Below are positions 34,619 through 49,897 of a stretch of 64,000 bases of DNA, piece by piece (within the stretch, counting starts at the first letter, position 1; every line of letters begins with the position of its first letter). Made by a program: the position numbers and the translations under genes. Location of the stretch: assembly GCA_009993635.1 (NCBI GenBank), contig JAACTC010000011.1:60089-124088 (forward strand). Direction: 5' to 3'. Below the pieces are notes generated by a model that worked only from the letters and a program-made list of their open reading frames with translations, made no database searches and was not told the DNA's origin. This DNA comes from Erythrobacter sp. GTDB lineage: Bacteria; Pseudomonadota; Alphaproteobacteria; Sphingomonadales; Sphingomonadaceae.

Positions 34619-34645
34619 CAGCATTTTGGCGCAAATGGGACCAAT
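34619..34645. repeat. left terminal inverted repeat
   Basis: CAGCATTTTGGCGCAAATGGGACCAAT matches the reverse complement of 49271..49297 at 24 of 27 positions. Confidence 0.85.
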
Positions 34646-34687
34646 CTAGAAGATGATTTTCCGCTAGATTGATGGTCGAATGGGAGC

Positions 34688-35137
34688 ATGCAGAATCCCA
34701 ACACCGTGTCGGCCCTAAAGAGCAAGCGAGGCGAGATCGCCGGTCGCGTGGATGCACTCCAGGATCAGCTTCGCCAAGTCCTGATCGACCTCGATCACGT
34801 CGACTGCACGATCCTTCTTTTCGATCCCGATGCAGAGCTGGACGAAATCAAGACGAAGCCGATGCCTCCGCGCCATCATGCGTTCAAGGGGCAGGTGACC
34901 CGTTCAATCTTGACCATGTTGAGGAAGTCGTCGGCGCCGCTGGATGGTCTGACCATTACGCTGCGTTTGATGGACGAGCGCGAACTGAATCAGTCCGACA
35001 AAAAGCTGGTGAAGACCATCCAGAAGCGTGTGGGAGCAGCCTTGAGGAATATGCGAGATCGCGGGTTGGTGAAGTCGGAGAAGGGCCACAAGGGACTGCT
35101 GATTTGGGATCTGAAGGGCGCAACACCTGATGTCTGA
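34688..35137 (+). CDS. hypothetical protein (N-terminal coiled-coil, possible winged-helix C-terminus)
   Basis: 149-aa ORF with protein-like composition. It is the first gene inside the left end and overlaps the next ORF by 8 nt. Confidence 0.5.
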   Translation: MQNPNTVSALKSKRGEIAGRVDALQDQLRQVLIDLDHVDCTILLFDPDAELDEIKTKPMPPRHHAFKGQVTRSILTMLRKSSAPLDGLTITLRLMDERELNQSDKKLVKTIQKRVGAALRNMRDRGLVKSEKGHKGLLIWDLKGATPDV

Positions 35138-35537
35138 AGAGGTCATTGATCCCTGGAGCGCTCACGTTTCTCGCTTCGACATTCGCGACGCGCAACTCAC
35201 TGGCATGAGGCCAGATGGCGAAGTGTTTGTTCGGCATGACCTAAGCCTAACGGTGCAGGAAGGCCGCTTTGAACACCTGAGCGAGGACGAGCAAGGGCAG
35301 CCGACACCTTCCCGCCTATGCTATGGCTGCACCATCCGAATTTCAGGGGCGGCGTCACCTGATTATTGGAGCGGGACCGATATGCAGATCGTCGTGACGG
35401 GCACGCATCAGAACGGCTGGCGCATCACTATCGTTGGCCAAGGTGCCATCGGTTTCGATGACGCTGGATCGGTCGGGATCGAGTTCGATCAGGCGCCGAC
35501 AATGACCGTCTACGAGAAAGAAGGCGGAGATGGATAG
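35130..35537 (+). CDS. hypothetical protein
   Basis: 135-aa ORF coupled to the previous one. No family was recognised. Confidence 0.45.
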   Translation: MSEEVIDPWSAHVSRFDIRDAQLTGMRPDGEVFVRHDLSLTVQEGRFEHLSEDEQGQPTPSRLCYGCTIRISGAASPDYWSGTDMQIVVTGTHQNGWRITIVGQGAIGFDDAGSVGIEFDQAPTMTVYEKEGGDG

Positions 35538-35685
35538 GTCGGAAAGGGATGGGCCCACCGATGTCGGGAAGGGCCGTGAATCTTGTCTGATGAAGGTTGA
35601 GGCGCTTCTGCTTGGCGCCGTGATGCTTTACGGCATCTGGTCCCTTATCTCTTCATTCTTCTGATGCAACGGCGCGCGTGCTCTA

Positions 35686-36189
35686 TTACCCTTTCACCAA
35701 CGGGATGCGGGCATGGATGGTGCCAGTGATCACCAAGAACATGACGAAAGGGGCGATGCTGATCGCAGTCGCAATGATCGCGAGCTTCACTCGCTGATAT
35801 TTCTCGCACACGATACGCGAGTTGCGCCAAACCTGTCCTAGCAGGTCGTTTCGAAGCGTTGCCTCGCTACAGTCGAGAAATTCCGCGATATAGTTCGATT
35901 CCGTTCGCTTCTGGATTTCCTTGAAGAAGATCAGGCTTTTCTCTCCTCCATTATCGTCGGGAAAGTTGGCACGGAACAGGTGGTAGTAAGACACGAGTAA
36001 GCCGATGAGCATTAGCGATCCAGGGATCGTGACATACCAGAGGAGCAAGTCGCCAGCGGAAACGTTTAGAGCCGCGATTATGAGAATGAGCGTGTTCACG
36101 CCGAAAAGGGCGTTGATCCTCGCTTCGATACGCGGAAAGAACCCCAGGACCCGATCAAGTTGACGCTGAATGATATCGATGTCCTTCAT
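35686..36189 (-). CDS. PycTM / DUF5706-like (SLATT-like) membrane effector
   Basis: 167 aa with two central TM helices and one C-terminal TM helix. SLIFFKEIQ...EATLRNDLLGQVWRNSRIVCEKYQRVKLAI resembles Pycsar TM effectors. The ATGA overlap links it to the upstream gene. Confidence 0.6.
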   Translation of the reverse strand: MKDIDIIQRQLDRVLGFFPRIEARINALFGVNTLILIIAALNVSAGDLLLWYVTIPGSLMLIGLLVSYYHLFRANFPDDNGGEKSLIFFKEIQKRTESNYIAEFLDCSEATLRNDLLGQVWRNSRIVCEKYQRVKLAIIATAISIAPFVMFLVITGTIHARIPLVKG

Positions 36190-36959
36190 CCCTTTTCCTC
36201 CCCATCCATTGCGGCCTGATCTTCATGCGCAGCCAGGGGGCATCCCCGCATCGTTCTGCAGCATTTCTCGCCGCTAGCGATGACGTCCTGCCAATATTGC
36301 TTCAGCGCTTTTCGCCGGAGGTGTTCGGCATAGGCCAGATCAACCAGTATCTGCCGTTTGTCGCAATCGGCGCGGAGCGTCCTGACCATGCGTCCCCGTG
36401 CACGCCTCTTGCATTTTCGCGGACACAGAGCGCGGCCGTTGATGAGCCGCCCCTTCTTGCCGAAGACATGCAGCTTGCGGTCGGTGATCCAGCTCGGCTC
36501 GCCCAGCCGCGCCAGCTCATACTCCTCTAGTATACCGGCTTCGCGGGCGAGGGACAGCGCGCGCTCATGATGCTTCCCTGCGCTGCCGTGATCTAAGGCC
36601 TGTTTTACGGGCCAAATTCGCGTGAGCTCTGCTACGCCTTGGCATACAAGGAACTGTTCGAGCCGGGTCCACCACTGTCGAGCGACAGCCGGCGAGTGCA
36701 CCTCAAGGGTATGGAGGCCCACGCAAAACGTCATATCGCCCTGGATGTGTCGTTCTGCGCATCTAGCAGGAAGGTCTGTTCCGGGGTTCTCCTCACGCAC
36801 CCGTGGATCGCGAGGACCGGCTATGCGCAGATGTAGTCCGTCCTGTGCCCACGGCGTTTTAGGGACGCGAGCACGACCGACGATAAGCTGCCTGTTGGCT
36901 TTTTCTATGGAGAACCAGGCTGGACGGCTGTCAGCCAGGTGCAGAACGGCTGGCTTCAC
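36186..36959 (-). CDS. hypothetical protein, 257 aa, no recognisable domain
   Basis: The ORF exactly fills the space between the cyclase and the TM effector, with a 4-nt overlap at each end (GTGA and ATGA). Confidence 0.5.
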   Translation of the reverse strand: MKPAVLHLADSRPAWFSIEKANRQLIVGRARVPKTPWAQDGLHLRIAGPRDPRVREENPGTDLPARCAERHIQGDMTFCVGLHTLEVHSPAVARQWWTRLEQFLVCQGVAELTRIWPVKQALDHGSAGKHHERALSLAREAGILEEYELARLGEPSWITDRKLHVFGKKGRLINGRALCPRKCKRRARGRMVRTLRADCDKRQILVDLAYAEHLRRKALKQYWQDVIASGEKCCRTMRGCPLAAHEDQAAMDGEEKG

Positions 36960-38548
36960 CTTTTCGCATGCGCCCGCATCGGCGGAGCGGGGTCGACTTC
37001 ATGTGCCATCATTGGTTCACCATCGACACCGGTGTTGATGTAGGGCGAAGACATAACTCCGAGCATGATTTCCGCAGTGTGCGCATTGAGGTTCTGAATG
37101 ATGCGCTCGCTGCCAAAGGCCTCGCGGATGTTTGCGGGCGATTTCTGGCGTGCATTCTCGCCAATCGCTGTTTCTACACCGTTGCACCGCCGCTGCTCCG
37201 ATTCGGAAACGCAGGTCGCCCGGCTGGCAGCTGCGCGAACACTGGCATCGCCGCGTAGACCGAGCCGACAGATGGGTGTGGTGCCGTAATCGATGCCGAT
37301 GGCAAGGCCGAGGTCCTCGATTCCAGGCAGCATTTCGCGACACAGTTCGAACGAGGAGCGAAGACCGGCTGCAGCATCCACCGACTTCTTCATCGTATCC
37401 ATTGCATTCGTCTCTGCCTTGCTTCCTTCCGCGAGCAGGCCATGGACGCAATCCCCGATGTAGCGAACCTTCCTGCCGCCGAAATCGTCGCGCAAAACCG
37501 CGCCCATCTCCGCGCGAATTACGTGCAAATTCGCCACAGCTTCGGCGATTCCGCCGGTCGCGATGGCATTATCGATGTATGCCGTGAAGTTGTCGACGTC
37601 GGCGAAGATCGATGCCAGTTCCATCCGTATCGCATTGCTCGGAGGATGGTCGGCGTAGACCAGGCCCTTGAGCGGCGGCTCCTTGTGATGGAAACGGAAG
37701 ACCGCTTCGCCACTGTCTGACTTGTTGCGCGCTTCGAGACTTTCGAGGACCGCCGCATAAGCTTTTTCGAGCCTGTCGTTGGCGCTCTGCCGAACGCCTG
37801 CTGTGATTATTTCATCGCCAAGATAGCGACGTTCGATCTCTTCGTTGAGGAACACGCTCTTGGCGAGCGGTTCGGCCACTTGCCCGATCGCGGAGGCCGC
37901 TCGTGGGCTCAGATTCAGGCCTTCATCTGTTCCGTCCGCGAGCTTGGCCGCGTGATTCGCTGGGCTGCCGATGAAGAGCGGTTCGCGTTCACCGCGCCGA
38001 CCGGAATCAATGGCGACAGCGGGTCCACTGTCGATGCCGATGCAGACACCCGTCTTGAAATTCGGATGCTTGTCGCCGAGCCTCTCGACCATCTCACGAA
38101 ACGCAGCGGAGAAAGCCACGGCAACCCGAACACGCTCGCCCTCGTTCTCGGCCCCTTCAGGAGCGAGGACCACGGCATGCAGCCTCGAGCCGTGGAAATC
38201 GACCCGCTGCATTTCGAATTCGTCGATGAGTTCGTCACAGCCCTGGTAATGAGCATGGAGAAACTCCAGGGCCCGCTTATGGCTTGCCTCCGTTTCCCGT
38301 CCTGCGTCGGTCAGGACATCGTTGAAGTCGATAAGATTAGCGTAGACGTGAACGGCATCCGTGGTGATTGCCCTATTGCGCGGGATATCGACCAGTGCGG
38401 CACGGACCGATGCGTCGGCGGCCATACCCTTCTGCACCCTAGCCTCAGTGAGGAAAGTGCGAAAGTCTTCGACCTTGATGTCGCCTTCCGGCACGCTGTT
38501 CATGAAATCCCGAATTCTGTTCCGGGCACGATCCTCGTTCCACGCCAT
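36956..38548 (-). CDS. tandem class III nucleotidyl-cyclase-homology protein (degenerate N-terminal CHD plus catalytic-looking C-terminal CHD)
   Basis: CHD1 reads VHVYANLIDFNDV...VDFHGSRLHAVV...IGIDSGPAVAI...IGSPANHAAKLA and lacks the metal-binding Asp residues. CHD2 reads SIFADVDNFTAYI...VRYIGDCVHGLL...IGIDYGTTPI and keeps them. A GGGAGG RBS precedes the ATG. Confidence 0.7.
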   Translation of the reverse strand: MAWNEDRARNRIRDFMNSVPEGDIKVEDFRTFLTEARVQKGMAADASVRAALVDIPRNRAITTDAVHVYANLIDFNDVLTDAGRETEASHKRALEFLHAHYQGCDELIDEFEMQRVDFHGSRLHAVVLAPEGAENEGERVRVAVAFSAAFREMVERLGDKHPNFKTGVCIGIDSGPAVAIDSGRRGEREPLFIGSPANHAAKLADGTDEGLNLSPRAASAIGQVAEPLAKSVFLNEEIERRYLGDEIITAGVRQSANDRLEKAYAAVLESLEARNKSDSGEAVFRFHHKEPPLKGLVYADHPPSNAIRMELASIFADVDNFTAYIDNAIATGGIAEAVANLHVIRAEMGAVLRDDFGGRKVRYIGDCVHGLLAEGSKAETNAMDTMKKSVDAAAGLRSSFELCREMLPGIEDLGLAIGIDYGTTPICRLGLRGDASVRAAASRATCVSESEQRRCNGVETAIGENARQKSPANIREAFGSERIIQNLNAHTAEIMLGVMSSPYINTGVDGEPMMAHEVDPAPPMRAHAKR

Positions 38549-38692
38549 CTTCTGCAGCCTCCCAGTTGATCGCGAATCACCGAATGGCTGCGACCTATTG
38601 ACCGGTGGAACGTTAGCAGAACATTGAGGTTTTATCCAGCCTTACGCGATGTGCGATGCGAGTCCTGTGGATTTCTGACAACCAGCACGTTC

Positions 38693-39616
38693 TCAGCCGT
38701 TGAATGGGCCCAGATCTGCGATGTGGTCGCGCAGCATGTTGCAAGCCGGCGCCATAATCGCCGCGGCATCCTTCCCTGGCTCGTAGCTGTAGGGAATGGT
38801 CGTTATGCCGGTCAGATCACTCGGTAGTCTTACCTTCTCCTCGCGCGGTTCCATCAGGATGGCCCGCTTGCGTCCAAGGCGCCCCATGAAGAGCCCCAGC
38901 TCGAAGATCACGTTATCACGGGGGGCGGGCCATTTTTGGTCGCGAACCAGGGTGACATCGTCTGTGTGGGCGATCGCGATTGCGAAATCAGAATCGTCGA
39001 CCTCGGTCTCCAGGGAATCCAGCGCGTAGCTTGCCACTTTGAAGACATCGTTCGTCCAGAGGCGGACCACGAAATCGTCATGCGCAAAGGCGTTTTCGAT
39101 TATGCGCGCTACCGCCAGGGCTTCCACCGAGCAGATGATGAAGACCCGAACCTTCTCGCGGTGCTGCCCAACCTGCTTGTTTCGCTCAAGCAGGCGACGG
39201 GCCAAGGTCCTGGCTATGACCCGGTAGATGTCGGAATGCCTCGATGCGATGTCGCATATGTCTGCGTAGCTGAGCTTCGCCACCAGAGCGGCCTCTTTCG
39301 CGACGACGTCTGCCGATCGCCGCTGCGAGGGTTCGACTACGACCATCTCGCCGACATGGTCACCCCTGCCGCGTGAAGCGACTTCACGGCCGTTTATGAT
39401 GATACCGAAGTTGCCCGCCATGATCAGATAGAGATCATTGTCGTCTCCACCTTGCCTTATGATCGCTTCGCCCTCGGTAACCCCGAGCATCTCGGCCCTG
39501 TCGGCGAGTTCCTCGGCGAGTTCGCGATTTCCGCTCACAATCTGTTGCTGCAGCATGGCGTCAATCCGATTGGCGCGGCCTGCGTCGCCCTGAAAGCGTT
39601 CGGTCAATCTGCTCAC
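38693..39616 (-). CDS. cyclic-nucleotide-binding domain plus CAP12/Pycsar-type TIR-like effector
   Basis: The N-terminal CAP_ED motif reads GDDNDLYLIMAGNF...GDHVGEMVVVEPSQRRSADVVA. The C-terminal TIR-like motif reads FAIAIAHTDD...RDNVIFELGLFMGRLGRKRAILM...LPSDLTGI. Confidence 0.75.
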   Translation of the reverse strand: MSRLTERFQGDAGRANRIDAMLQQQIVSGNRELAEELADRAEMLGVTEGEAIIRQGGDDNDLYLIMAGNFGIIINGREVASRGRGDHVGEMVVVEPSQRRSADVVAKEAALVAKLSYADICDIASRHSDIYRVIARTLARRLLERNKQVGQHREKVRVFIICSVEALAVARIIENAFAHDDFVVRLWTNDVFKVASYALDSLETEVDDSDFAIAIAHTDDVTLVRDQKWPAPRDNVIFELGLFMGRLGRKRAILMEPREEKVRLPSDLTGITTIPYSYEPGKDAAAIMAPACNMLRDHIADLGPFNG

Positions 39617-40311
39617 GTGAAAGCCCTCCAGTAGGTCGAGGAATAGATTTCCTCATCGTTATGTTGGGACCATTTCCATTTGTGCCAGATGTTCTCGCCT
39701 TGGCTGCCAAGCTTTTGAGGGTCCTTGAGCCCGTCATAGACCCGCTTCGTTATCCAGGTCGCCTTGTCCGCGCTCAGTGATGTCAACTTGGCTGCGAGAT
39801 TGGCTGCGATGCCGATCCACACGAGGTCATTATCGCCCCGCACACCAGTGCGTGCAGCGCGTATTTCGGAAGTATCGATCCCGACGACGTGCCGAATCTC
39901 GGAATCGTGTTTCCAGTGCTTCTTCATCCCGGTCTTGAGGTAGTTCTTGACCGCGTAGTTGATCTCCAAAGCGCAACTGACCGCCTGGTTGCGCTGGCTG
40001 CTGGATATAAAGATTCCCATCACCCGGTCGCCGTCGTATGAGACGATCTTCCCGCCGTGCTGCCGGATCAGCCGCGATGCCGTGTAGAGGAACGTCTTGT
40101 AGACCTCGCCGGCGAATTGCCATTTCTTCGTCGCCACGAGATCCGTGGACTGGTCGAGATCCGCATATAGGATGGTGGCCTTTTCGAACCGAACCGCGTC
40201 GTTGGCTAGTTTCAGATCGCTGGCATTCGGAACCACCTGTCCGTCGCGCACGCTCCACTTGGAGCCGAAGGTGTCGGCCGCGTTCTTCTTGATATCGTCC
40301 GCAACGCTCAC
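39613..40311 (-). CDS. Pycsar-type small class III nucleotidyl cyclase (PycC-like)
   Basis: 232 aa with a single CHD: ATILYADLDQSTDL...YDGDRVMGIF...VGIDTSEIRAARTG...IGIAANLAAKL. It overlaps the downstream effector by 4 nt. Confidence 0.75.
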   Translation of the reverse strand: MSVADDIKKNAADTFGSKWSVRDGQVVPNASDLKLANDAVRFEKATILYADLDQSTDLVATKKWQFAGEVYKTFLYTASRLIRQHGGKIVSYDGDRVMGIFISSSQRNQAVSCALEINYAVKNYLKTGMKKHWKHDSEIRHVVGIDTSEIRAARTGVRGDNDLVWIGIAANLAAKLTSLSADKATWITKRVYDGLKDPQKLGSQGENIWHKWKWSQHNDEEIYSSTYWRAFT

Positions 40312-40335
40312 GCTGTTCCAATCCTTTGTCGAATT

Positions 40336-41532
40336 TTACACCTTCGGCGTTCGCTCGACGATGCCATCATCGTCGATGTCGTAACGATACAGGTGGAGCT
40401 TGCGGGTCGAGATTAGCCTAATGGCCTGCTCCACCGACGAGGGTGAGACTAGGAACCACTCCCGCGGGTCGACCTTGCGTCCGAAGCGGTCAGGTAAATG
40501 CACATCGACGCAGGCCGCTGAGAAGAACCGGTGTAGCAGCCCCTCTATTTTCTTGGGTGGGACGCCCCGAGTGTCATATTCATCGACGAGCTCCGCTTTC
40601 GACATGAGAAAGGTCGGATCGTTGTCGGCAGCGCTGAGCCTGCCTGCAGCTGATCCGGTGGTGGAACCGACCTTTACCATGTGGCTTTTCAGATCAGCCA
40701 GTGCTGGGTCTTCGGAGAGGGTTCTGGCGACATAGATGCGCCCGGTCACCGGAGCGGCCTGACCGTCGAACAGCGGGCCGGCTTGTGGTGACAGAACGCG
40801 GCGGCTGTTGTCGGCGCGGTAGAGTGCCTTACCGAAGGACCGCAGCAGATGACCGCTCTCGGTTCCGTTGTCATAGATGATGCGCAGCCTCGCGTCCTTC
40901 TGGTCACCCTTGGTTCGCGTCATCCAGGCGCCCACTTCGGCAATGTAAGCAAGCTGACCGTCGAGGATGAACATATCTCCGGCAGCGATCTGGTATGTGG
41001 AGCTGGTAGGCACGGTAGAGCGGACACCGGAGGCAATGTCCGCAATGGCCTCGTCGAAAATAGGAGCGAATTTTTCGAATTCGGCGCACGGCGTCCTTTC
41101 GGCGATCATATCCGCCTCGGCCTTCGGGACAGGAGCTGGCGTGGCCCGGAATTCGAAGATGTGATCATCGGGCGTGGCCAGAAGATCGTCATCGTCCGCG
41201 ATGAGTTCATCTAGGCTGGCCGGCACTTGATCCATTCGCCCTGCGCTTTGTTGTAGTAGCCCGTATTGATCTAGATCCCGAAGGGCGCTGACCTTATTCT
41301 CATCTTCTCGGAAGGCATTGAGCCGAACGCCTAGCCGCATTTCCTCCGGTGATCGGGACGCGGAGTCTGGAGGACGCCCATGGCGTTCTCGGAACGACAC
41401 GATCTCGAGGAACAGCCGCGCCTGATCGTCCGCCTGGGTCGCGGCCTTCTTGACCTCGGGAACGAACAGGTCATCCTTCGCGGCGATGAGCTCGTCGAGC
41501 TTCTCGTAGAACAGGTCAGCCGAGCGAGACAT
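40336..41532 (-). CDS. T5orf172 / MUG113 (GIY-YIG superfamily) domain protein with helicase-associated-like N-terminal motif
   Basis: The C-terminal part reads GRIYVARTL...MVKVGSTTGSAAGRL...IEGLLHRFF...REWFLVSPSSVEQAI. Its start overlaps the helicase stop by 1 nt. Confidence 0.7.
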   Translation of the reverse strand: MSRSADLFYEKLDELIAAKDDLFVPEVKKAATQADDQARLFLEIVSFRERHGRPPDSASRSPEEMRLGVRLNAFREDENKVSALRDLDQYGLLQQSAGRMDQVPASLDELIADDDDLLATPDDHIFEFRATPAPVPKAEADMIAERTPCAEFEKFAPIFDEAIADIASGVRSTVPTSSTYQIAAGDMFILDGQLAYIAEVGAWMTRTKGDQKDARLRIIYDNGTESGHLLRSFGKALYRADNSRRVLSPQAGPLFDGQAAPVTGRIYVARTLSEDPALADLKSHMVKVGSTTGSAAGRLSAADNDPTFLMSKAELVDEYDTRGVPPKKIEGLLHRFFSAACVDVHLPDRFGRKVDPREWFLVSPSSVEQAIRLISTRKLHLYRYDIDDDGIVERTPKV

Positions 41533-43589
41533 CAGGCTGCTTCATCCCGTTCCTTTTCCTTCTGACGCCGGATCGCAGCCGCCCTAATCCATGCCAGAGA
41601 CTCAGCCATCCGCTTCTCGATCGGATCGGGCGAATTGATGTTCGGCTCCTTTCCGTGCTGTTCCTTGAACGCACGGATGCGCGGCACTTGTGCCAGAGCT
41701 TCGGCTTCGCTGATTGTGATCTTGGTCTCGGCGAGCGTCTGGTGGATACGTCGCAAGACAGATTCGCCGAGCGACTTCGACAGTATTTCGTAGGATTGCT
41801 GGAACGGGTTCACCTGGTCGATCAGATCGATGCTGAGTTCGGGCATCGTGATGAACTTTGAAGTCAGCTTCAGAAGCTGCGCATGCGCCTTCTGGCCATC
41901 GGTCGCATCATCGTCCTCCGACGAGGCCTGGCCTGTCTCGCGGTTCGCCTGTGTGAGCTGGGCCAGAACCGCACGTCGTGCAACGACATTCTGGCGGATT
42001 GCTTCGATGTCGTCCTCGTTATCCGCGATGTCGGGATAGCGCTTGGCGATGAGGTCAGGGATCAGATGTTGATTGATCGTCTCGGCCGGGAACTCGTCGG
42101 GGATGAGGCTGGCGCGCATGACCTGATTGTCCTGCAGGACCGCGGCCATGAGATCGGTCATATCCGTCTGAATGATTTCCTCGGCACGCTTGCTGGTCGG
42201 CTCCTTCAAGCCCGTCACTTCGATGGTGGGCTCCGGCTCGAGCAGGTCGATCCGGGTAGAGGGCCGCGCGACGCCATCGAAACGATCGTCCGATGCCTTG
42301 GTCTTGAAGTTGAAATTGGGAGCGAGCACCTGCTCCATGAGTAGCGAGCAGGCGATCGCCTTGAGCATATCATTGACCGCTGTGCGCACGACCTCGTCGG
42401 CGGTATCTGGTTCCGCGATCAGATTGGTGAATTGTGCATGGCTCTTGCCCGGGGCGTCGCGTGTCGCTCGCCCAATGATCTGGACGACCTCGGTGAGCGA
42501 ACCACGATAGCCGATGGTCAGCGCATGCTCGCACCAGATCCAGTCGAAGCCCTCTTTGGCCATGCCCAGCGCGATGACAATGTCGAGGTCATCCTTTTCC
42601 TCCACGCTCCGGAGGCCGTTAAGCACCTTCTGCTGTGTGTCGGGGGTTACGAGATCGGCGATCTTGAGGATGCGACCATCGGACGTCCGAAGATGTTGGA
42701 ACCCGGTGACGGGATCGATCTCCACGACATCCCCGAGCACATCGAGGATGCTGTTCATCTCCTTGATCTTGTCGCCGAGCGCCGCTTGCGAGTTGACGTT
42801 GGGTATGTGGATGATCGTTTTCTTCGTCGGGTCCAGGACCTCGCCGATCGCGCTTAGATAGCTCCCGTGGTAGAAGTGGTAGCCAATCCCGAGCGTCTTG
42901 AGATGCTCGTAACCGGACAGCTGCTCGTAGTAGGTGTAGGTAACCCGGGTGAACTTCTCCTCGTCCTCGGGCCGGAGGACGGGAACTTGGTCGCCACGGA
43001 AGTAGGACCCGGTCATCGCCACGAGGTGGGCCGACCCTTCGCTCATCACTGAGCGGACGAGCTCACCGAGGCGATTGTCGGCGTCGGCCGAGACATGGTG
43101 GAACTCGTCCACCGCGAGCAGGCAACCGTGGAAGGCAGCGATTCCCGCATCGCTTTCCATGATCCGATCGAAGGCATGACGCAGGGTCGAATGCGTGCAG
43201 ACGATGATCTCGTCGTCGCTTTCCATGAAGCGGAGGAATGCGTTGATCTTGCCGCCTTCGCCCCCGAGCATATCGCACAGGTTGTTGCGTGGTGACACTG
43301 TCCAGTCATGGTCGAAGCCGTGCTGAGTGAGGCTGGTCGACCGGAACGAGTTGCCGATCGATTTCTCCGGCACCGCCACGATGACCTTACGGATGCCCTG
43401 ATTGTAGAGCTTGTCGAGCCCGAGGAACATGAGCGCGCGGCTCTTGCCCGAAGCCGGCGGCGACTTGATCAGAAGATACTGGGAGTTTCGAGCATCGTAG
43501 GCGCGGGCCTGCATTGCGCGCATGCCCATATCGTTCGTCGACTTGCTGGCGCCGGTGGCGCCGTATTCGACAGTGATGAAATCGGGCAT
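41532..43589 (-). CDS. SF2 DExH-box helicase (ResIII-like)
   Basis: Motif I is SPPASGKS, motif II is AVDEFHH, motif III is AMTGS and motif VI is QIIGRATR. A C-terminal extension of about 200 aa follows. Confidence 0.85.
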   Translation of the reverse strand: MPDFITVEYGATGASKSTNDMGMRAMQARAYDARNSQYLLIKSPPASGKSRALMFLGLDKLYNQGIRKVIVAVPEKSIGNSFRSTSLTQHGFDHDWTVSPRNNLCDMLGGEGGKINAFLRFMESDDEIIVCTHSTLRHAFDRIMESDAGIAAFHGCLLAVDEFHHVSADADNRLGELVRSVMSEGSAHLVAMTGSYFRGDQVPVLRPEDEEKFTRVTYTYYEQLSGYEHLKTLGIGYHFYHGSYLSAIGEVLDPTKKTIIHIPNVNSQAALGDKIKEMNSILDVLGDVVEIDPVTGFQHLRTSDGRILKIADLVTPDTQQKVLNGLRSVEEKDDLDIVIALGMAKEGFDWIWCEHALTIGYRGSLTEVVQIIGRATRDAPGKSHAQFTNLIAEPDTADEVVRTAVNDMLKAIACSLLMEQVLAPNFNFKTKASDDRFDGVARPSTRIDLLEPEPTIEVTGLKEPTSKRAEEIIQTDMTDLMAAVLQDNQVMRASLIPDEFPAETINQHLIPDLIAKRYPDIADNEDDIEAIRQNVVARRAVLAQLTQANRETGQASSEDDDATDGQKAHAQLLKLTSKFITMPELSIDLIDQVNPFQQSYEILSKSLGESVLRRIHQTLAETKITISEAEALAQVPRIRAFKEQHGKEPNINSPDPIEKRMAESLAWIRAAAIRRQKEKERDEAA

Positions 43590-43602
43590 GCTACTCTCCG
43601 GT

Positions 43603-46335
43603 TCAGGCGGCTTTTGCCGCTTTCTTGGTCATACGGGCGTAAAGCTTGAACAGGTGCTCGAGGCGCTCAGTATCGTCCTTAAATTGACGTCCGATATAGA
43701 TTGTCTCGAGATAGTCATCGAGGTTCCGGTGGGCTTGAAGAAGGTCGTCCGGCATTGTCTTAGGATTATATAGCCAACCCAAGGTTTTGCCGTCGGCTAC
43801 GTAAGGCTCTCTCGTCCGGACGATGCCAAGTGCATGTTCCTCAAGGTTCACTTTCTGCTCGTGGGAGAGTGATGGCATCGGAAAGTTGTTGTAGACCAGT
43901 GTGTTCGAATACCGATAATCGCTCTTCAGTCTTCCACCGACTGTAGCGAGCCAGACCGCATGAATTCTTGTCGACAGGACTGAAAGAAGCCACGTTGGCG
44001 GATCGTAAATTGCCAAAGCCGCATCATTGATAATGACTGTCTCCGAAAGAAAGCCGCAAGGCAGGTAAAGCCTATTTTCAGAAGAGACACGAGGGACGAT
44101 TATCGCAGGCTTTCCGTAATCTTGGATCTGAATGAAGCGATGCGCAGTGTCAGCCTTAGCCCGCGTGGTGGGAGCTTTAGCCTGCAGACGAAAAGCACGA
44201 CTCGCAGCTACTCGCTCTGCGATTAAAGGAATTGATAAAGCTTCGTCGAAGTCAGCATCTTCAATCCACAGACAGTATCTTTCCTTGCTCTGGAGGTAAT
44301 CCTTGGAGCCATAATACCGTTTTATAAACTTGGAGGAATCTGGATTCCTATCTCGCATTTCACGAGCCTCGTCGGGTGTCAGTATCAGACCCCCTCCATC
44401 AGATGCCATATTGCCTTTTTCCATCCGAGGCAGGCCGCTAAGATTTAAGGATGAACGACCCACCCAGACGGTGTCCATCTCAATAAGATACGGACCGATG
44501 TTTCTTACTTGTCTGGAGCTATCGTGAGATATGACGCGCCTATTGATATTCGATCTTGGGGAGATCGCAACGATTACACATATTACAGCGGCATTCTTAG
44601 CCGCATTGTTTCGCCATTTGAACGCTTCATGAGCGAATAGAACCTGGCTACCATGGTCAAAGACTGCCGGCCATAACAAGGCGACCTGTTCACCTTGCGC
44701 GATGCTGTTGGTTGCGACGAACGCTGACTCTGCGCCAGACCTTTCGCCATATTCTGCTGCTTTTAGGAACCATCCAGCTACATAGTCTAAATTTTTATAG
44801 TTGACCTTGTAGGGGGTAAAAACCGCTCGCAGATCGCTTTTTTGCTCGGGCGTCTGCATGCTGCTGCCAAGATAGGGTGGATTTCCAACGACGTAAATTT
44901 CAGCCTCTTTCTCTCGAGGACACACCTCTGACCAGTCGACGCGCAGAGCATTACCAACAACGATGCTGCCTGCATCCGTAAGCGGCAGTGCCGGCGTCGG
45001 CGCCGAGCAGATCTCGTCCAGCTTGCGGTTCATCTGATATTGCGAAATCCACAGCGACAGCTTGGCGGTCTCGCAGGCGAAATCAACCGGGTCGATGCCA
45101 TAGAAGTTGCTGATCTTGATGCCGGTCTGGTAATCGGCCAGTTGCAACTGACCCTTGCGTTTTACGTCACGCATGCGCCGGAAAGCCTCGGTCTCGATCA
45201 GCCGCAGCTCCCGATAGGCGATGATCAGGAAATTGCCCGATCCGCATGCGGGGTCGAACACGCGGATGCGCGAAATGCGCTCGACCAGCTTCTCGAGCGC
45301 CTTCACGTTGTCGCCGGCGGCAGTGAGCTGTTCACGAAGGGAGCCAAGGAACAACGGCTCCAGAACCTTCATGATGTTGGGCACGGAGGTGTAGTGCATG
45401 CCGAAGTCGGCGCGCATATCGGTCTGCACGATGGCCTGGATCATCGAGCCGAAGATATCGGCATGGATCTGGTCCCAGTGCAGCTCTGCCGCCTCGAGCA
45501 GCAGTCGCCGGGCTTTCCGGTTGAATTCGGGTATCTCGGTGTGATCGCGGAAAAGCCCGCCATTCACATAGGGGAAGTCGGCTGCGATACGCTGCGAGCG
45601 GACTCCTTGATCGGCCCGGGCGTCCTTGTCGGCCAAGTCGAGGGCAAGGAACACATCCTCGATGACGCGCTTGGTGTCCGATCCATCGACCTTCATCGCT
45701 TCGCGACGGAGGGTGTTGAGGAACAGCTTGTCGGTGAAGATGCCTGTGTCTTCTGCGAACATGCAGAACAGTAGCCGTGTCATGAACAGGTTGAGGTCGT
45801 GGACCTTGTCTGCGCCCCAGGTCGGATTGGCATCACGGATGGCGTCGTGGAACTTGGCCATGTGCCTCGCGGCCTTGACGTCGGCGGCAGTCTCAGGGGC
45901 AGGCTTGAACCGCTCCACGCCGAACATCGGAAGCAGGAAGTCGTAGTTGACCGGGAGCTCGGCCAGCTTATCGAAGCTGGGGGTCTCGTCGTTCTTGAGA
46001 TCGACGGCGAGAAATTCGTCACCGTCCGTGCTCATCACGAACCGAGGCGCATTCTTCGCAGAGCGCCCCTTCTTACCGACCAGCGAAGCCTTCAACGAAG
46101 TGACTGTATCCTGGACTTCGCCCTTCTGCGCCGCGCGGTAGAGGAGCTTTTTGGGCCAAAGAATGTCGGCGTCCACGAGCCCTTCGGGATGCTTCATCCT
46201 CAGCTTGTTGACCTCGTTCCTGGAAGCCTCGTAGGCCTCCATCAGCCTGAAGGGAAACTCGTGCAGCGAGCAGTTTTCCGCCGACACGTCGGCAACCAGC
46301 AGATCCAGCTGCTTCTCGATTTCGATTGTGTTCAT
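43603..46335 (-). CDS. MmeI/PglX-like gamma-class N6-adenine DNA methyltransferase (911 aa; N-terminal nuclease motif apparently degenerate)
   Basis: Motif I is VFDPACGSGNFLI and motif IV is VVGNPPYLG. The N-terminal region is MmeI-like and there is a large C-terminal TRD-like region. The start at MNTIEIE (46335) overlaps the upstream stop (ATGA). The track start at 46455 is an extension. Confidence 0.85.
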   Translation of the reverse strand: MNTIEIEKQLDLLVADVSAENCSLHEFPFRLMEAYEASRNEVNKLRMKHPEGLVDADILWPKKLLYRAAQKGEVQDTVTSLKASLVGKKGRSAKNAPRFVMSTDGDEFLAVDLKNDETPSFDKLAELPVNYDFLLPMFGVERFKPAPETAADVKAARHMAKFHDAIRDANPTWGADKVHDLNLFMTRLLFCMFAEDTGIFTDKLFLNTLRREAMKVDGSDTKRVIEDVFLALDLADKDARADQGVRSQRIAADFPYVNGGLFRDHTEIPEFNRKARRLLLEAAELHWDQIHADIFGSMIQAIVQTDMRADFGMHYTSVPNIMKVLEPLFLGSLREQLTAAGDNVKALEKLVERISRIRVFDPACGSGNFLIIAYRELRLIETEAFRRMRDVKRKGQLQLADYQTGIKISNFYGIDPVDFACETAKLSLWISQYQMNRKLDEICSAPTPALPLTDAGSIVVGNALRVDWSEVCPREKEAEIYVVGNPPYLGSSMQTPEQKSDLRAVFTPYKVNYKNLDYVAGWFLKAAEYGERSGAESAFVATNSIAQGEQVALLWPAVFDHGSQVLFAHEAFKWRNNAAKNAAVICVIVAISPRSNINRRVISHDSSRQVRNIGPYLIEMDTVWVGRSSLNLSGLPRMEKGNMASDGGGLILTPDEAREMRDRNPDSSKFIKRYYGSKDYLQSKERYCLWIEDADFDEALSIPLIAERVAASRAFRLQAKAPTTRAKADTAHRFIQIQDYGKPAIIVPRVSSENRLYLPCGFLSETVIINDAALAIYDPPTWLLSVLSTRIHAVWLATVGGRLKSDYRYSNTLVYNNFPMPSLSHEQKVNLEEHALGIVRTREPYVADGKTLGWLYNPKTMPDDLLQAHRNLDDYLETIYIGRQFKDDTERLEHLFKLYARMTKKAAKAA

Positions 46336-46652
46336 GATTCGCGCGCGCGGGTCCGTTTGGCCAAGGTCTGAGCGCCGTGAGCGTCGGCAGCTATTTGCGA
46401 TACTTCGTCTGCCTTCGGGATTGGCAGCAGGTCGGTGCCAATGGCGACCATACACTGCGCAAAGAAAGAGGCGGTGAACCGCCCACGGGCCACCTTGTTA
46501 CGCAGATTGGCTACGTTGTCGCTCACCCCGATGGCAGCGAGCTTATCGACCAGAACTTCGTAAGAGACCCCCTTACGCATCATTTCAGCGCGCAGGAGGT
46601 TCTTCACCAATTGGTCCCACGCGGCTTCGTCTATCTGTTCGATTTCCTTCAT
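46332..46652 (-). CDS. small DUF6471-like HTH protein
   Basis: MKEIEQIDEAAWDQLVKNLLRAEMMRKGVSYEVLVDKLAAIGVSDNVANLRNKVARGRFTASFFAQCMVAIG. It is translationally coupled to the methyltransferase. Confidence 0.6.
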   Translation of the reverse strand: MKEIEQIDEAAWDQLVKNLLRAEMMRKGVSYEVLVDKLAAIGVSDNVANLRNKVARGRFTASFFAQCMVAIGTDLLPIPKADEVSQIAADAHGAQTLAKRTRARES

Positions 46653-46719
46653 ATGGCCGTTATAGGACGCACAAGTTCCAAACGGCAAGCGTCGGCAGTT
46701 ATGTGCACCACCACAGACG

Positions 46720-48039
46720 ATGATATTGCTGGTTGACAGGCCACGTGGCACCATCGTATATGGTGGTGTAGGCAACGTCAAACGGTGGTCCTTGGGTCAA
46801 CACTTTCTCCTCTCAGCGCGCTACCGCGATCTCCCGATCGCAAAGATCGCGCGCCTGAGCGAGGCAGAGGCCTACGATATCTTCCTGCATGCTCGATGGA
46901 TGGATGGGGTGCCGAAGTGTCCCGAATGCGATTCAGGGGCATGGACGCTGGGCGATCACTCCTGTCCCGGCGACAAGCGCCAGTTCCGCTGCAAGAGCAA
47001 TCCGTGCAGGAAGAAATTCTCTGTCACGAGCGGAACGCTGCTTCACAGCCGGAAGAAGGACTTCGTGACGATCCTGGTTGCCATCAGGTTGTTCATTTCG
47101 GGCGCGAAGGGGATCTCGTCGATTCAGCTGGGCGCTGATGGCGACATGGCTATCAAGACCGCATGGGTCCTCGCTCACAAGATGCGCGAGGCGCAGATCA
47201 AGAACCAACTGGGCCGGCAGCTTTCGGGCATAGTAGAGATCGATGGCTCTACCTATGGTGGCTACTATCACCAGGTGAACGAGAAGTCGGAGCGCATCGA
47301 CCGGCGTAAACTCGGGAACATCACCGGCAAGGAGATGTCGGTGGTCGTGGCGCGCGAACGTAGCACGAAGGATCGGGTTGGTCTGAGTGTTTGCACCGTC
47401 GTGCCGCACGAGGCAGATTCACGTCCCTTCATCGTGGACAGCGTCGACCGCTTCGCCAAGGTCTATGCGGACGATGGCAGCCATTGGGATGCGCTGGCGG
47501 CGGCTTTCGACATAGATCAGGTCAACCATTCCCAGCGCTATTATGACAAGGGCATCTGCACGAACCAGGCGGAGAGCTACTTTTCGCGCGTCGATCGGAT
47601 GGAGATGGGAACGCACCATCATATCGCCGGGGATTACCTGTGGGGCTACGCCTGCGATGCGGTGTGGCGCGAGGACAAGCGCAGGGACACCCAGAGGGAG
47701 CGGTTCCAGTCGATCCTGATCGGTCTGCTCGGCAATCCCGTTTCCCGCACGATGAAGGGATACTGGCAACGCCATCTGGAAGTGGCTTCGGAAGAGCCCA
47801 ACCTCGAAGCAGAGCTGCTGGTCGAGGATGAGAACCTTGCCGATGATGAGGCCGAAGGCATGAGCCAGAAGGACATCATCGCGTTGTTCGGCCGGGACGC
47901 TCTGCCTGCTCAGCGCAGGCAGCCGGGTGGAAGGCAATGGAAGGCGCGGAAGCCGTTCGTCCCGAAGAAGCCGGATATCAGGCCCAAACCGTGGTCGGAG
48001 TTCCAGCAGCCGCGAGGCCTGCCTTCGTTCATTCCGTAG
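46720..48039 (+). CDS. IS1595-family DDE transposase (with C-terminal extension)
   Basis: The N-terminal zinc ribbon reads RWMDGVPKCPECDS...FRCKSNPCRKKFSVTSGT. It is followed by an ISXO2-like DDE domain (IVEIDGSTYGG...VYADDGSHWD...NQAESYFSR). Confidence 0.8.
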   Translation: MILLVDRPRGTIVYGGVGNVKRWSLGQHFLLSARYRDLPIAKIARLSEAEAYDIFLHARWMDGVPKCPECDSGAWTLGDHSCPGDKRQFRCKSNPCRKKFSVTSGTLLHSRKKDFVTILVAIRLFISGAKGISSIQLGADGDMAIKTAWVLAHKMREAQIKNQLGRQLSGIVEIDGSTYGGYYHQVNEKSERIDRRKLGNITGKEMSVVVARERSTKDRVGLSVCTVVPHEADSRPFIVDSVDRFAKVYADDGSHWDALAAAFDIDQVNHSQRYYDKGICTNQAESYFSRVDRMEMGTHHHIAGDYLWGYACDAVWREDKRRDTQRERFQSILIGLLGNPVSRTMKGYWQRHLEVASEEPNLEAELLVEDENLADDEAEGMSQKDIIALFGRDALPAQRRQPGGRQWKARKPFVPKKPDIRPKPWSEFQQPRGLPSFIP

Positions 48040-48110
48040 CCTTGTGCTGAATGCCGGCCGAGTGTCAGCATTAACGCGATGATGACCATGCGGATGCCAT
48101 CTGTCGCCGC

Positions 48111-49040
48111 ATGAACTTGATTCGACTATTTCTGGCGGCGTTTCTTCTGGTTGCCTGCGTGTCCTCACCCGCACACGCTGTAACTACGCAGTCTGACGCC
48201 GCTCCTTCAGAGAATGCCGTAAGTAGCAGAAGCCCAGACGTAGGTGACGGAGCCCAGCCAGCTTCCAAGGCCGACGACGGCGAGGACGACAAAAACCCAA
48301 GCCGCCGGACCGTCAACGGCCAAAGATTTATCGATACAGACCTTGAATGGCCGATACAGAGGCCATGCCGCGAGGGTGAGGAAGATCGCTACAGTGATCT
48401 GTGTGCTCAGTGGCACGCCGCTAAAGGCTCCCAAAAATCGGCGTTCTACGCGTTTTGGGGTGTATTGATCGGAATTGCTAGCACTGTGATCTTGGTTGTC
48501 ACGCTCATATTCGTGAAGCGTGGCACCGATGCTGCGGTGAATGCTGTCGCCGTTGCTACCGATGCCCAGAAACTTCAGCGCGCCGAATTCCAGCAACGAA
48601 TGCGCCCTCGATGTGCGGTAATCGGAATCAGCCTGGTCGAAGACTGGGCGGCGAGCGTGAAAGCTGGCAGTCCTATCCCTATGCGGATACAGCTCGAGAA
48701 TCTCGGCAGCACCACTGGTCGCCATCTCTCTCTGCTTCTCGATGGCATTGCGTTTCTCGCCCTTGATGGCACCGAAGTCTGGAGCGAAAAGCGCATAATT
48801 CCCCTCGCTCCTTTGCGTGCTGGACAACAACGTGAGGAGCTCATGCTGATTGAGCATACCGCGGCTGGATCCGAGATTCATGGGGTCGAGGTAAGGGGTC
48901 GCATTGGATCCATTTCCGACAAGGTCGGCGAGGAGCCGGGGCTTTCCTTCATTGAGTATTTCGTATGGCGTGAGAACTCGCTCCATCGTGGCAGCCCTGA
49001 CTTGGTCGAGCGGCCACATGAGAAAGACCCCGAGCATTGA
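48111..49040 (+). CDS. hypothetical lipoprotein/membrane protein (strand ambiguous, see findings)
   Basis: The lipobox signal is MNLIRLFLAAFLLVAC, with one internal TM helix. A 20-codon sample shows purine-rich position 1 and higher GC3 than the antisense frame. No RBS was seen. Confidence 0.4.
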   Translation: MNLIRLFLAAFLLVACVSSPAHAVTTQSDAAPSENAVSSRSPDVGDGAQPASKADDGEDDKNPSRRTVNGQRFIDTDLEWPIQRPCREGEEDRYSDLCAQWHAAKGSQKSAFYAFWGVLIGIASTVILVVTLIFVKRGTDAAVNAVAVATDAQKLQRAEFQQRMRPRCAVIGISLVEDWAASVKAGSPIPMRIQLENLGSTTGRHLSLLLDGIAFLALDGTEVWSEKRIIPLAPLRAGQQREELMLIEHTAAGSEIHGVEVRGRIGSISDKVGEEPGLSFIEYFVWRENSLHRGSPDLVERPHEKDPEH

Positions 49041-49211
49041 TACGATCACGACCGTGATCTGAAGCTTCCGAGCTCTTGGTGTAGAAATTTCCTTTTCCAT
49101 ATTCCGTCTCCTTCGAAGACGGCAACACGGGTCGGGCTGTAGGCTCGCGATTATCGCGCGCCGTCAAAAATCGCGTAAGTTTCGCTAAGGGGCGATGGCG
49201 GATGTCCGAAA

Positions 49212-49245
49212 TTTTCTAGGGGTAGGCTCGCCTACCCCTAGAAAA
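49212..49245. repeat. perfect 16-bp-stem palindrome near the right end of the element
   Basis: TTTTCTAGGGGTAGGC-TC-GCCTACCCCTAGAAAA. Confidence 0.9.
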
Positions 49246-49270
49246 CCCCTCCTCATGAGAAAGAGGTCCT

Positions 49271-49297
49271 ATTGGTCCCCTCTGCGCTAAAATGCTG
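49271..49297. repeat. right terminal inverted repeat
   Basis: The reverse complement is CAGCATTTTAGCGCAGAGGGGACCAAT. Confidence 0.85.
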
Positions 49298-49305
49298 GAG
49301 TTCCA
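49298..49305. repeat. right copy of the 8-bp target-site duplication GAGTTCCA
   Basis: Identical to 34611..34618. Confidence 0.85.
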
Positions 49306-49897
49306 GCGCCCGGTGCTCGATTCGCTGCGCCAGCCGCTGGAGACGGGCAAGGTCGACGTCGCGCGCGCCAACGCGCATGTCAGCTTCCCCGCGCGCGTCC
49401 AGCTGATCGCGGCGATGAACCCGTGCCGCTGCGGCCACCTGGGCGATCCCTCGCTCGCCTGCAGCCGCGCGCCCAAATGCGCTGCCGATTACCAGAGCAA
49501 GGTCAGCGGGCCGATGCTCGACCGGATCGACCTGCATGTCGAGGTCGAGCCTGTCAGCGCAGCCGACCTCGCGCTGCCGCCGCCCGCAGAAGGCAGCGCG
49601 CAGGTCGCCGCGCGGGTCGCCGCGGCGCGCGAAGTGCAGGGCGCACGCGGGGCAGAGGCAGGCGTGCGCACCAATGCCGAGCTGGACGGCGAGATGCTGG
49701 AACGCTTCGCCACGCCCGACGAGGCGGGGCGCGCGCTGCTGATGCAGGCGGCGGAGCGAATGCGGCTTTCGGCGCGCAGCTACGTCCGGATGCTGCGGGT
49801 CGCGCGCACGATCGCGGACCTCGCCGGCGCGGAGCAGATCGGCCGCGTCCACGTGGCCGAGGCGCTGAGCTACCGGCGGCAGGCACCGCGGGCCTGA
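49298..49897 (+). pseudogene. comM: comM/yifB Mg-chelatase-like ATPase, 3' fragment
   Basis: EFQRPVLDSLRQPLETGKVDVARANAHVSFPARVQLIAAMNPCRCG... continues the AAA+ domain in frame with the 5' fragment once the element is removed. Confidence 0.88.

Follow-up and report, generated by a model that had tools for sequence, protein, structure and literature searches.

The locus described here raises the question of how a 14.7-kb island carrying several defence-like modules came to interrupt comM, and of what mobilizes it. The island lies in a 64,000-nucleotide stretch of Erythrobacter sp. DNA (contig JAACTC010000011.1), the whole of which is referred to below as the window. It had been proposed in an earlier note, made from the letters alone, that the island is carried by the transposase of an insertion sequence (IS) of the IS1595 family. 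The results presented here lead to the conclusion that positions 34619–49297 very probably constitute a single unit transposon of an ISNha5-like branch of the IS1595 family (likened to ISNha5 by description only), site-specific for comM and with exchangeable cargo. The earlier note missed the specificity for comM and the conserved accessory genes OrfL and DUF6471. The element, its target and its transposase are located as follows.

34619–49297: putative transposon, 14,679 bp, with 27-bp imperfect inverted repeats and an 8-bp duplication
34619–34645, plus strand: left terminal inverted repeat, CAGCATTTTGGCGCAAATGGGACCAAT
49271–49297, minus strand: right terminal inverted repeat, read inward CAGCATTTTAGCGCAGAGGGGACCAAT
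34611–34618: left copy of the target-site duplication, GAGTTCCA, 8 bp
49298–49305: right copy of the target-site duplication, GAGTTCCA, 8 bp
33675–34618, plus strand: 5′ part of comM/yifB, broken after the Walker-B codons (...VLFLDELPEF); the frame stops inside the left end at 34649
49306–49897, plus strand: 3′ part of comM/yifB (Pfam Mg_chelatase and Mg_chelatase_C)
46792–48039, plus strand: IS1595-family DDE transposase, 415 aa from TTG 46792; the maximal open reading frame (ORF) runs from ATG 46720

The 27-bp ends and the 8-bp duplication were found at the island boundaries that the earlier note had given. The ends are complementary at 24 of 27 positions, and are the sole two matches of their kind in 64 kb, against 0 expected by chance. 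The G+C content is 57–60% within the island, as compared with 63–69% in the flanks. The comM gene is split right after its Walker-B motif (...VLFLDELPEF/QRPV), and in-silico excision, in which 33675–34618 is joined to 49306–49897, yields a full-length YifB/ComM of 511 aa. The rejoined protein matches TIGR00368 (YifB) in one stretch, over positions 3–499 of 499, with 526 bits against a cut-off of 362. As read from these coordinates, the insertion inactivates comM.

Members of the IS1595 family are characterized by a zinc-ribbon plus DDE transposase, short inverted repeats and an 8-bp duplication (PMC8101967). The zinc-ribbon and DDE architecture attributed earlier to the transposase was recovered with both Pfam domains: the ORF 46720–48039 matches Zn_ribbon_IS1595 (PF12760; 8e-07, 29.3 bits against a cut-off of 25.4) and DDE_Tnp_IS1595 (PF12762; 1.6e-29, 153 of 153 profile positions). 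It also matches NCBIfam NF033547, ‘IS1595 family transposase’, with 111 bits against a cut-off of 75. Residues D151, D227 and E261 (415-aa numbering) are invariant among 32 homologues, and the zinc ribbon has four invariant cysteines. According to ISfinder, the zinc ribbon is absent only from the IS1016 group of the family. The modelled core resembles RNase-H-fold transposases and integrases (HIV integrase, ISCth4, Mos1), with weak scores. Because the homologues open at ‘xQHxLLSA’ and GGTGG lies upstream, the true start is probably TTG 46792. The 8-bp duplication and short terminal inverted repeats typical of the family are present not only in the window but also in 10 other complete elements.

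It is apparent that this transposase is the sole mobility gene, as had been claimed, since the element ORFs tested with Pfam, NCBIfam and PADLOC gave no match to a tyrosine or serine recombinase or to a Tn7, conjugation or phage family. The tyrosine or serine recombinase by which a Tsy element or an integrative island would be recognized is thus missing within 34619–49297. Nor does the arrangement correspond to a composite transposon: only a single transposase gene is present, and a further copy of an IS was seen neither in the element nor elsewhere in the window. From what is known of the family, the single DDE transposase would bind both 27-bp repeats and move everything between them. Staggered target cuts 8 bp apart would then give rise to the GAGTTCCA duplication, the footprint of which is seen in the sequence.

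The stop codon of the transposase lies 1,258 bp short of the right end, with one ORF (48111–49040) after it, in agreement with the figure of about 1.26 kb and the one further ORF given in the earlier note. So eccentric a position, with 12 kb of unrelated genes as cargo, might suggest a small IS nested near the right end, in which case the island was moved by other means and the outer 27-bp repeats are unrelated to the transposase. However, no second IS-type pair of ends occurs around 46.3–49.4 kb, the only two matches to the end consensus in 64 kb being the outer repeats. These outer ends, moreover, accompany the transposase clade at all the related loci, irrespective of cargo; the distal end always bears a conserved OrfL; and another recombinase was not found in the element with Pfam, NCBIfam or PADLOC. 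A nested IS, which the earlier note had named as a possible refutation, is regarded as exceedingly improbable.

The comparison on which several of these statements depend comprised about 25 related loci (numbered with the prefix L), consisting of DNA around transposase homologues from genomes and metagenomes; the metagenome scan yielded mostly short contigs. The transposase search returned about 35 long homologues (338–466 aa, 53–94% identical) that have a C-terminal extension, and a large set of sphingomonad relatives of 317–322 aa, about 48% identical, that lack it. The window element’s end CAGCATTnTGGnGCAnnnGGGACC travels with the long transposase clade in at least 12 other loci, in which the cargo is entirely different, so that the ends belong to the transposase. 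This excludes the other refutation named in the earlier note, namely ends that match a different element family whose recombinase is missing. In every long-clade locus CAGCATTnTGGnGCAnnnGGGACC, or the right-end variant CAGCTTCCGGTAGCAACGGGGACC, lies 1.1–2.6 kb downstream of the transposase; at the far end, where the contig reaches it, the identical end sequence lies beside the conserved 149-aa OrfL gene. The first 24 bases of the left repeat are identical in L004 and nearly so in L007, L012 and L023, and those of the right repeat are identical in L001, L005 and L006. The ends of a sister (short) clade are homologous (CGGCATTATGTAGCAAACGCACC). The complete long-clade elements, all with matching 8-bp duplications, are the following.

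L004: 9,003 bp
L023: 10,119 bp
L007: 10,362 bp
L012: 10,445 bp
Window: 14,679 bp
Pacificimonas flava (L038 9932 to L005 11524): 24,498 bp

Complete short-clade elements, also with matching 8-bp duplications, measure approximately 3.1–3.9 kb, and the family as a whole spans 3.1–24.5 kb. Described passenger-carrying IS1595 members are a few kb long, up to about 8 kb. The claim that the window element, with about 12 kb of cargo, is unusually large thus stands in relation to the published description of such elements, but within its own family the size is unexceptional.

The cargo genes differ from element to element. A PLD-SNF2 helicase and an Eco57I/MmeI-type methylase are found in L001, DUF5131 and an N6 methylase in L004, type I restriction–modification genes in L022 and L026, HSP70 and AAA proteins in L023, an MmeI-like enzyme in L025, and BREX in the P. 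flava element. Except for a weak MmeI similarity, none of the cargo proteins of the window recurs in the compared elements. The element consists of a small, conserved backbone and freely exchangeable cargo, the backbone comprising OrfL at one end and, at the other, the divergent DUF6471–transposase pair with a membrane-protein ORF.

Insertion in comM is a property of the family. Fifteen distinct loci (the window, L001, L004, L006, L007, L008, L010, L011, L012, L023, L025, L026, L031, L040 and L041) carry an element at one identical 8 bp of comM (LFLDELP/EFQ; GARTTYNN, the codons E-F-Q/A). Named genomes among them are Qipengyuania (L006, L031), Sphingomonas (L007, L011), Aurantiacibacter (L040) and Croceicoccus (L041). 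Metagenome-assembled genomes include Allosphingosinicella (L009, a copy of L004), Stakelama (L012) and Sphingomonas (L008, L010), and the rest are metagenome contigs. Each Walker-B duplication reproduces the host letters at its own site (GAGTTCCA, GAATTCCA, GAGTTTGC, GAATTTCA). In 11 of the 15 loci the transposase gene is co-directional with comM, and in four it is opposite; in these inverted insertions both copies of the duplication read as the exact reverse complement. Between hosts, the transposase genes share 89–96% DNA identity, as compared with 79–84% for the adjacent comM, and the transposase genes of L008 and L011 are 96% identical although the elements lie in opposite orientations in comM. 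These two observations indicate repeated independent insertions rather than one inherited event. The comparison shows site specificity, with one exact position at the comM Walker-B codons used in either orientation. Insertion there disrupts a natural-transformation gene and uses a host-conserved sequence as landing pad.

The DNA around this target is itself conserved. A stretch of 14 bp, CTCGATTCGCTGCG, 10 bp downstream of the duplication (target region 49306–49329), is near-invariant in all 13 loci with a visible flank, and includes GAT and TCG codons that are unusual in such GC-rich genomes; it may be a recognition sequence. A conserved CTCGATTCG sits just 3′ of the comM target.

Not all copies are in comM. 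The P. flava element interrupts a DUF3320-type (AAA_11-12) helicase gene with the duplication GATCTTGT, and the target frame can be restored; the flank of L015 is not comM; and several short-type ends were observed in IMG/VR contigs. These copies therefore represent real transposition away from comM. The P. flava transposase protein is 99% identical to a comM-inserted copy in Qipengyuania citrea, and since this 24.5-kb member occupies a non-comM site with its own 8-bp duplication, large units are mobile.

These findings bear on a different history, in which a small element of about 3 kb entered comM, the large forms accreted in place and spread by homologous recombination through comM, and the 14.7-kb copy is a fossil. 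Relatives of 3.1–3.9 kb do occur at the same site, the cargo differs at every locus, as it does at defence hotspots, the flanking comM sequences (79–84% DNA identity) would suffice as homology arms, and the ends of the window copy are imperfect. Accretion does not, however, account for the 24.5-kb BREX member outside comM, with its perfect 8-bp duplication and restorable target frame. Likewise, the occurrence of long-clade elements in both orientations, with the duplications correctly inverted, is beyond homologous recombination. Neither the transposase with its catalytic residues nor either end is damaged in the window, and the long clade, being distinguished by an end variant and a transposase tail of its own, is a transposing lineage rather than a series of separate expansions in situ. 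Accretion is accordingly considered unlikely, and the unit transposon is retained as the preferred reading.

If the family is a site-specific one, the determinant of its specificity becomes of interest. Attention is drawn in this regard to the gene nearest the left end.

34688–35137, plus strand: OrfL, 149 aa, starting 43 bp inside the left end

OrfL is 80–93% identical, at the same end position, in six of the six long-clade elements with a visible left end (the window, L004, L007, L012, L023 and L038), the transposases of which are only 67–92% identical. A total of 361 homologues was found, all without annotation. No Pfam or NCBIfam family was matched, sub-threshold winged-helix hints among the homologues being the only signal. 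The AlphaFold model, with a predicted local distance difference test (pLDDT) score of 83, has an N-terminal helix of 42 residues and, C-terminally, a winged helix. Its best PDB neighbours are the winged helices of MarR, Fur, ArsR and PadR, with weak E values (approximately 3e-3) and a consistent fold; when OrfL and DUF6471 were searched against the PDB by sequence, nothing above noise was returned. A coiled coil joined to a winged helix is the predicted architecture of OrfL.

The short clade is informative in relation to OrfL. Its transposases are 78–88% mutually identical, the ends (CGGCATTATGTAGCAAACGCACC) are near-identical, and these 3.1–3.9-kb elements, too, are found in comM. Three of them carry a type-A OrfL, 62–67% identical to that of the window (L031, Qipengyuania marisflavi; L040, Aurantiacibacter hainanensis; L041, Croceicoccus ponticola), and all three share the 8-bp Walker-B site of the long clade. 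In two others, L028 (1745–5266) and L030 (8690–12591; Sphingomonas canadensis), the OrfL is of type B, 30–36% identical to type A. These two elements lie, in both orientations, at a second exact comM site approximately 60 codons upstream (P-E-E/A-L-E; duplication GARGCGCT). In L035, which lies outside comM, OrfL is reduced to the N-terminal helix. The target site thus seems to follow the type of OrfL, not the type of transposase or end, which makes OrfL a candidate target selector, or else a regulator.

OrfL-like genes also occur on plasmids. In the plasmid records inspected (Rhodovastum, Paracoccus, Limimaricola and Skermanella rosea), one that is about 30% identical is the neighbour of the transposase match, and a transposase from among the closest relatives is present in eight of the eight plasmid records in which an OrfL-like match occurs. 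Included here is a 1.6-kb two-gene IS on plasmids of Rhodovastum atsumiense, similar in Skermanella, Paracoccus and Limimaricola, with homologous ends (CGGCATTATGGAGC...), a transposase 38–43% identical and a convergent OrfL-like gene approximately 30% identical. Unlike the window family, this IS is without DUF6471 and cargo, is multicopy, and is not situated in comM. The presence of OrfL-like genes beside these plasmid transposase relatives argues that OrfL is part of the IS core of this branch.

The following scheme of target choice can be envisaged. OrfL, probably as a dimer formed through its long helix, would bind near the comM target and recruit a transpososome with two-fold symmetry; the position would therefore be fixed and the orientation free. 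DUF6471 would regulate the divergent transposase and cargo promoters, and the disordered tail of the transposase, with its conserved terminal motif, would serve as a docking peptide for a partner protein. Taken as a whole, the scheme falls a little short of an even chance of being correct. A bolder version is advanced with somewhat more reserve: that OrfL is a swappable winged-helix selector, type A directing insertion to Walker B and type B to the site approximately 60 codons upstream. On that tentative proposal, the elements would represent the first site-specific system guided by an accessory protein within a classical IS family, and, after Tn6022 and Tsy, the third independent case of homing to comM Walker B, with up to 24.5 kb of defence genes moved by one transposase.

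It is also conceivable that the element is an IS1595 transposon whose specificity for comM is intrinsic to the DNA-binding domains of the transposase, or results from selection for the comM knock-out, OrfL being only a transcriptional regulator. The OrfL-like genes of the 1.6-kb IS, which is multicopy at several plasmid sites, agree with such an explanation, as do the free orientation, typical of transposase-intrinsic target choice, and the off-target P. flava element with its type-A OrfL. The passengers of ISNha5 are, moreover, called ‘transcription regulators’ in a passage of PMC11891212, citing Siguier et al. 2009. Against it, transposases that are 78–88% identical, with the same ends, use two exact comM sites that co-vary with the OrfL type. 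Conversely, one and the same 8 bp is the target of transposases that are only 45–52% identical and have different ends, where a type-A OrfL is shared. Selection alone cannot yield single-base precision in 15 loci. This alternative, although it is not favoured here, has an appreciable minority chance of being right.

Several observations weigh against the interpretation preferred here, that of a mobile site-specific transposon with OrfL as its candidate selector. The window copy is single in the window, its ends match at only 24 of 27 positions, and no identical second copy marks recent movement; the evidence for the element is entirely sequence-based. The correlation of OrfL with target is based on few, phylogenetically related cases (three versus two in the short clade). 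The P. flava element, although its type-A OrfL is 93% identical, lies in a helicase gene, and L037 has a type-B-like OrfL with a non-comM flank. Given the multicopy Rhodovastum IS, OrfL, instead of selecting targets, may have a general regulatory role. Protein-guided selectors of the TnsD/TnsF type normally fix orientation, which is free here. That DUF6471 binds DNA and that the tail serves for docking are guesses.

The remaining backbone features lie to either side of, or within, the transposase gene.

46332–46652, minus strand: DUF6471 gene, 106 aa (Pfam DUF6471, 5.8e-27)
47746–48036, plus strand: C-terminal extension of the transposase, residues approximately 319–415, an acidic linker plus a conserved end motif
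48111–49040, plus strand: OrfR, 309 aa, with a signal-like N-terminus, the motif SDLCAQW and a central transmembrane helix

DUF6471 adjoins the transposase, and is divergent from it, in every related comparison locus. The leftward cargo operon opens with it, and in L001, L004, L022, L025 and L026 it is followed directly by restriction–modification or helicase genes. In most elements it overlaps or abuts the start of the first restriction–modification gene (46332–46455 in the window; also L004, L022, L025 and L026), an arrangement that resembles that of the controller protein of a restriction–modification operon. A small DNA-binding regulator is the probable function of this gene product.

The C-terminal tail of about 100 aa described in the earlier note is real and conserved in a clade of homologues of 396–466 aa, although its length, measured against the relatives of 317–322 aa, is nearer to 95 aa. 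It is kept in 22 of 23 long-clade proteins and absent from those relatives, and it ends in WKxRKPFxPK...RPxPWSELxxPxGLPSFxP, preceded by the acidic linker. Residues approximately 319–415 have pLDDT values below 50 and are predicted to be disordered, and the possibility of a folded domain was rejected on that basis. A pattern of this kind would be typical of a short docking motif. A beta-clamp-type motif was also considered and set aside, since GLPSF, judged by eye, is a poor fit to QL[SD]LF. The tail accompanies the clade with elements of 9–24.5 kb and is missing from the 3-kb clade; in L022, however, a shortened tail goes together with at least 10 kb of cargo, so that the link between tail and cargo size is loose. 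In L004, a second, out-of-gene copy of the tail motif (11259–11345, equivalent to L009 10503–10589) is found just past the transposase stop, and is 59% identical to window residues 408–436.

OrfR matched no family in Pfam, NCBIfam or PADLOC; its relatives are 70% identical in L001 and 33–41% identical in L008, L011 and L012. A minus-strand ORF at 48207–49100 was considered as the gene after the transposase and rejected, the plus-strand ORF being better conserved. The last gene at the transposase-side end is always a diverged membrane protein (L004 11425–12282, L023 11657–12313, L025 12064–13068, L040 10326–11258). These proteins have a motif like SDLCAQW or DLxAQxxMAxW right before the transmembrane helix, and no family match.

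IS1595 elements with passenger genes, termed tIS and including ISNha5 with its ‘transcription regulators’, are known from that same passage of PMC11891212, citing Siguier et al. 2009. The window element resembles the tIS of the ISNha5 and ISNwi1+ types in its zinc ribbon and DDE_Tnp_IS1595 domain, its short repeats, its 8-bp duplication and the movement of extra genes by one transposase. As the passengers of ISNha5 include regulators, so the window element carries, along with 12 kb of cargo, the candidate regulators OrfL and DUF6471. It differs in the size attained by its family (up to 24.5 kb), the strict specificity for comM, the defence cargo and the conserved disordered transposase tail. 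The ends begin with CAGCATT in the long clade and with CGGCATT or CGGTATT in the sister clade and the Rhodovastum IS; the ISfinder end consensus of ISNha5 reads CGGnnTT, a pattern to which CGGCATT of the sister clade conforms.

Insertion in comM has precedents of another kind. Tn6022, which is Tn7-like, and Tsy, which has a tyrosine recombinase, hit the comM Walker-B motif through TnsF (PMC10293859). It has been suggested (Faure et al. 2023, PMC10293859) that the motif serves these transposons as an anchor across species and that ComM-dependent transformation is disabled by them. The window element shares with them the insertion at comM Walker B and the variable cargo. Whereas TnsF works together with TnsA/B/C in Tn6022 and with a tyrosine recombinase in Tsy, the window element has one IS1595 DDE transposase, and none of TnsA, TnsB, TnsC, TnsD/TniQ or TnsF was detected in any element ORF with Pfam, NCBIfam or PADLOC. 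The window family differs further in its 8-bp duplication, its use of both orientations and its Sphingomonadales hosts. The duplication made by Tn7-like elements is 5 bp. With TnsD and glmS in Tn7 there is a conceptual parallel only, that of a DNA-binding accessory directing a DDE transposon to a conserved coding sequence, such a role being conjectural for OrfL. Tn7 inserts downstream of the gene recognized, in one orientation, and needs the TnsC ATPase; OrfL is a predicted winged-helix protein of 149 aa, unrelated to TnsD/TniQ.

The element is thus of a known kind, the passenger-carrying IS1595 type, and what is new is that it is larger, defence-loaded and comM-specific, with a candidate for a new type of target selector. 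The family in Sphingomonadales is previously undescribed. In the literature searched, no paper was found that links IS1595 to comM or to defence cargo or that mentions DUF6471, and work on comM and Sphingomonas gave no account of this family either, although absence there is not proof. An IS-type transposase encoded by one gene and mobilizing defence islands of 10–25 kb would blur the line between IS and transposon beyond the described tIS. comM in Sphingomonadales is recognized as a dedicated landing pad for exchangeable anti-phage cargo, and its Walker-B codons are hit by three mechanistically unrelated classes of transposon. Such a triple convergence argues for strong convergent selection on a site that is host-conserved and whose loss blocks the transformation-mediated curing of mobile elements. 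Should OrfL prove to be the selector, the two proteins (149 aa plus 415 aa) would represent a compact, protein-guided system of site-specific insertion, with a specificity apparently swappable through one small gene.

The cargo of the window element is arranged as follows.

35130–35537, plus strand: ORF of 135 aa, no Pfam, NCBIfam or PADLOC family match
35686–38548, minus strand: cargo module 1, with a Pycsar-type cyclase (36956–38548), an E2-like protein (36186–36959) and the 2TM effector PycTM (35686–36189)
38693–40311, minus strand: cargo module 2, with a Pycsar cyclase (39613–40311) and a cNMP-binding TIR effector (38693–39616)
40336–43589, minus strand: helicase/T5orf172 pair, with a superfamily-2 helicase (41532–43589) and a T5orf172/MUG113-domain protein (40336–41532), both from Pfam
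43603–46455, minus strand: cargo module 3, MmeI-like type IIG restriction–modification enzyme

The PADLOC matches for module 1 are PycC (8.7e-186), E2 (2.9e-92) and the 2TM effector (5.5e-71), and those for module 2 are PycC (6.1e-100) and the TIR effector (1.9e-133); Pfam matches were also obtained for both modules. The helicase/T5orf172 pair gave no confident PADLOC system. Five MmeI Pfam domains were found in module 3, together with the PADLOC match REase_MTase_IIG (3.1e-274), which begins at residue 45. The listed ORF of this enzyme overlaps DUF6471 because its true start is probably near 46335. A homologue of the ORF 35130–35537 is present in the P. flava element (73.5% identity to L038 11536–11898).

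Some minor observations may be added. A large serine recombinase gene (Resolvase and Recombinase domains) was observed at L001 1–1186, within 10 kb upstream of the transposase; the L001 element is 94% related to that of the window, its left end is beyond reach, and the gene, which is not in the window element, may be cargo or a nested element. Directly inside the right end of the window element is a 16-bp perfect palindrome (49212–49245; TTTTCTAGGGGTAGGC / GCCTACCCCTAGAAAA), which could be a terminator or a binding site. CTAG is rare in the window (43 observed versus approximately 213 expected from base composition), yet each element end has a pair of CTAGs no more than 80 bp away (34646–34667 and 49216–49241), the right pair within the palindrome. 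End-clustered CTAG motifs were rejected as accessory binding sites, since other elements do not conserve the pattern. A scan of viral contigs with the long-clade end gave no matches. Exact short-clade ends are present in L032–L037 (IMG/VR, classed as viral), none of them in comM. In L036 and L037 a homologous membrane-protein gene, the product of which is guessed to be phage-lysis-like, is found upstream of the end, at a distance of a few hundred bp to about 1 kb.

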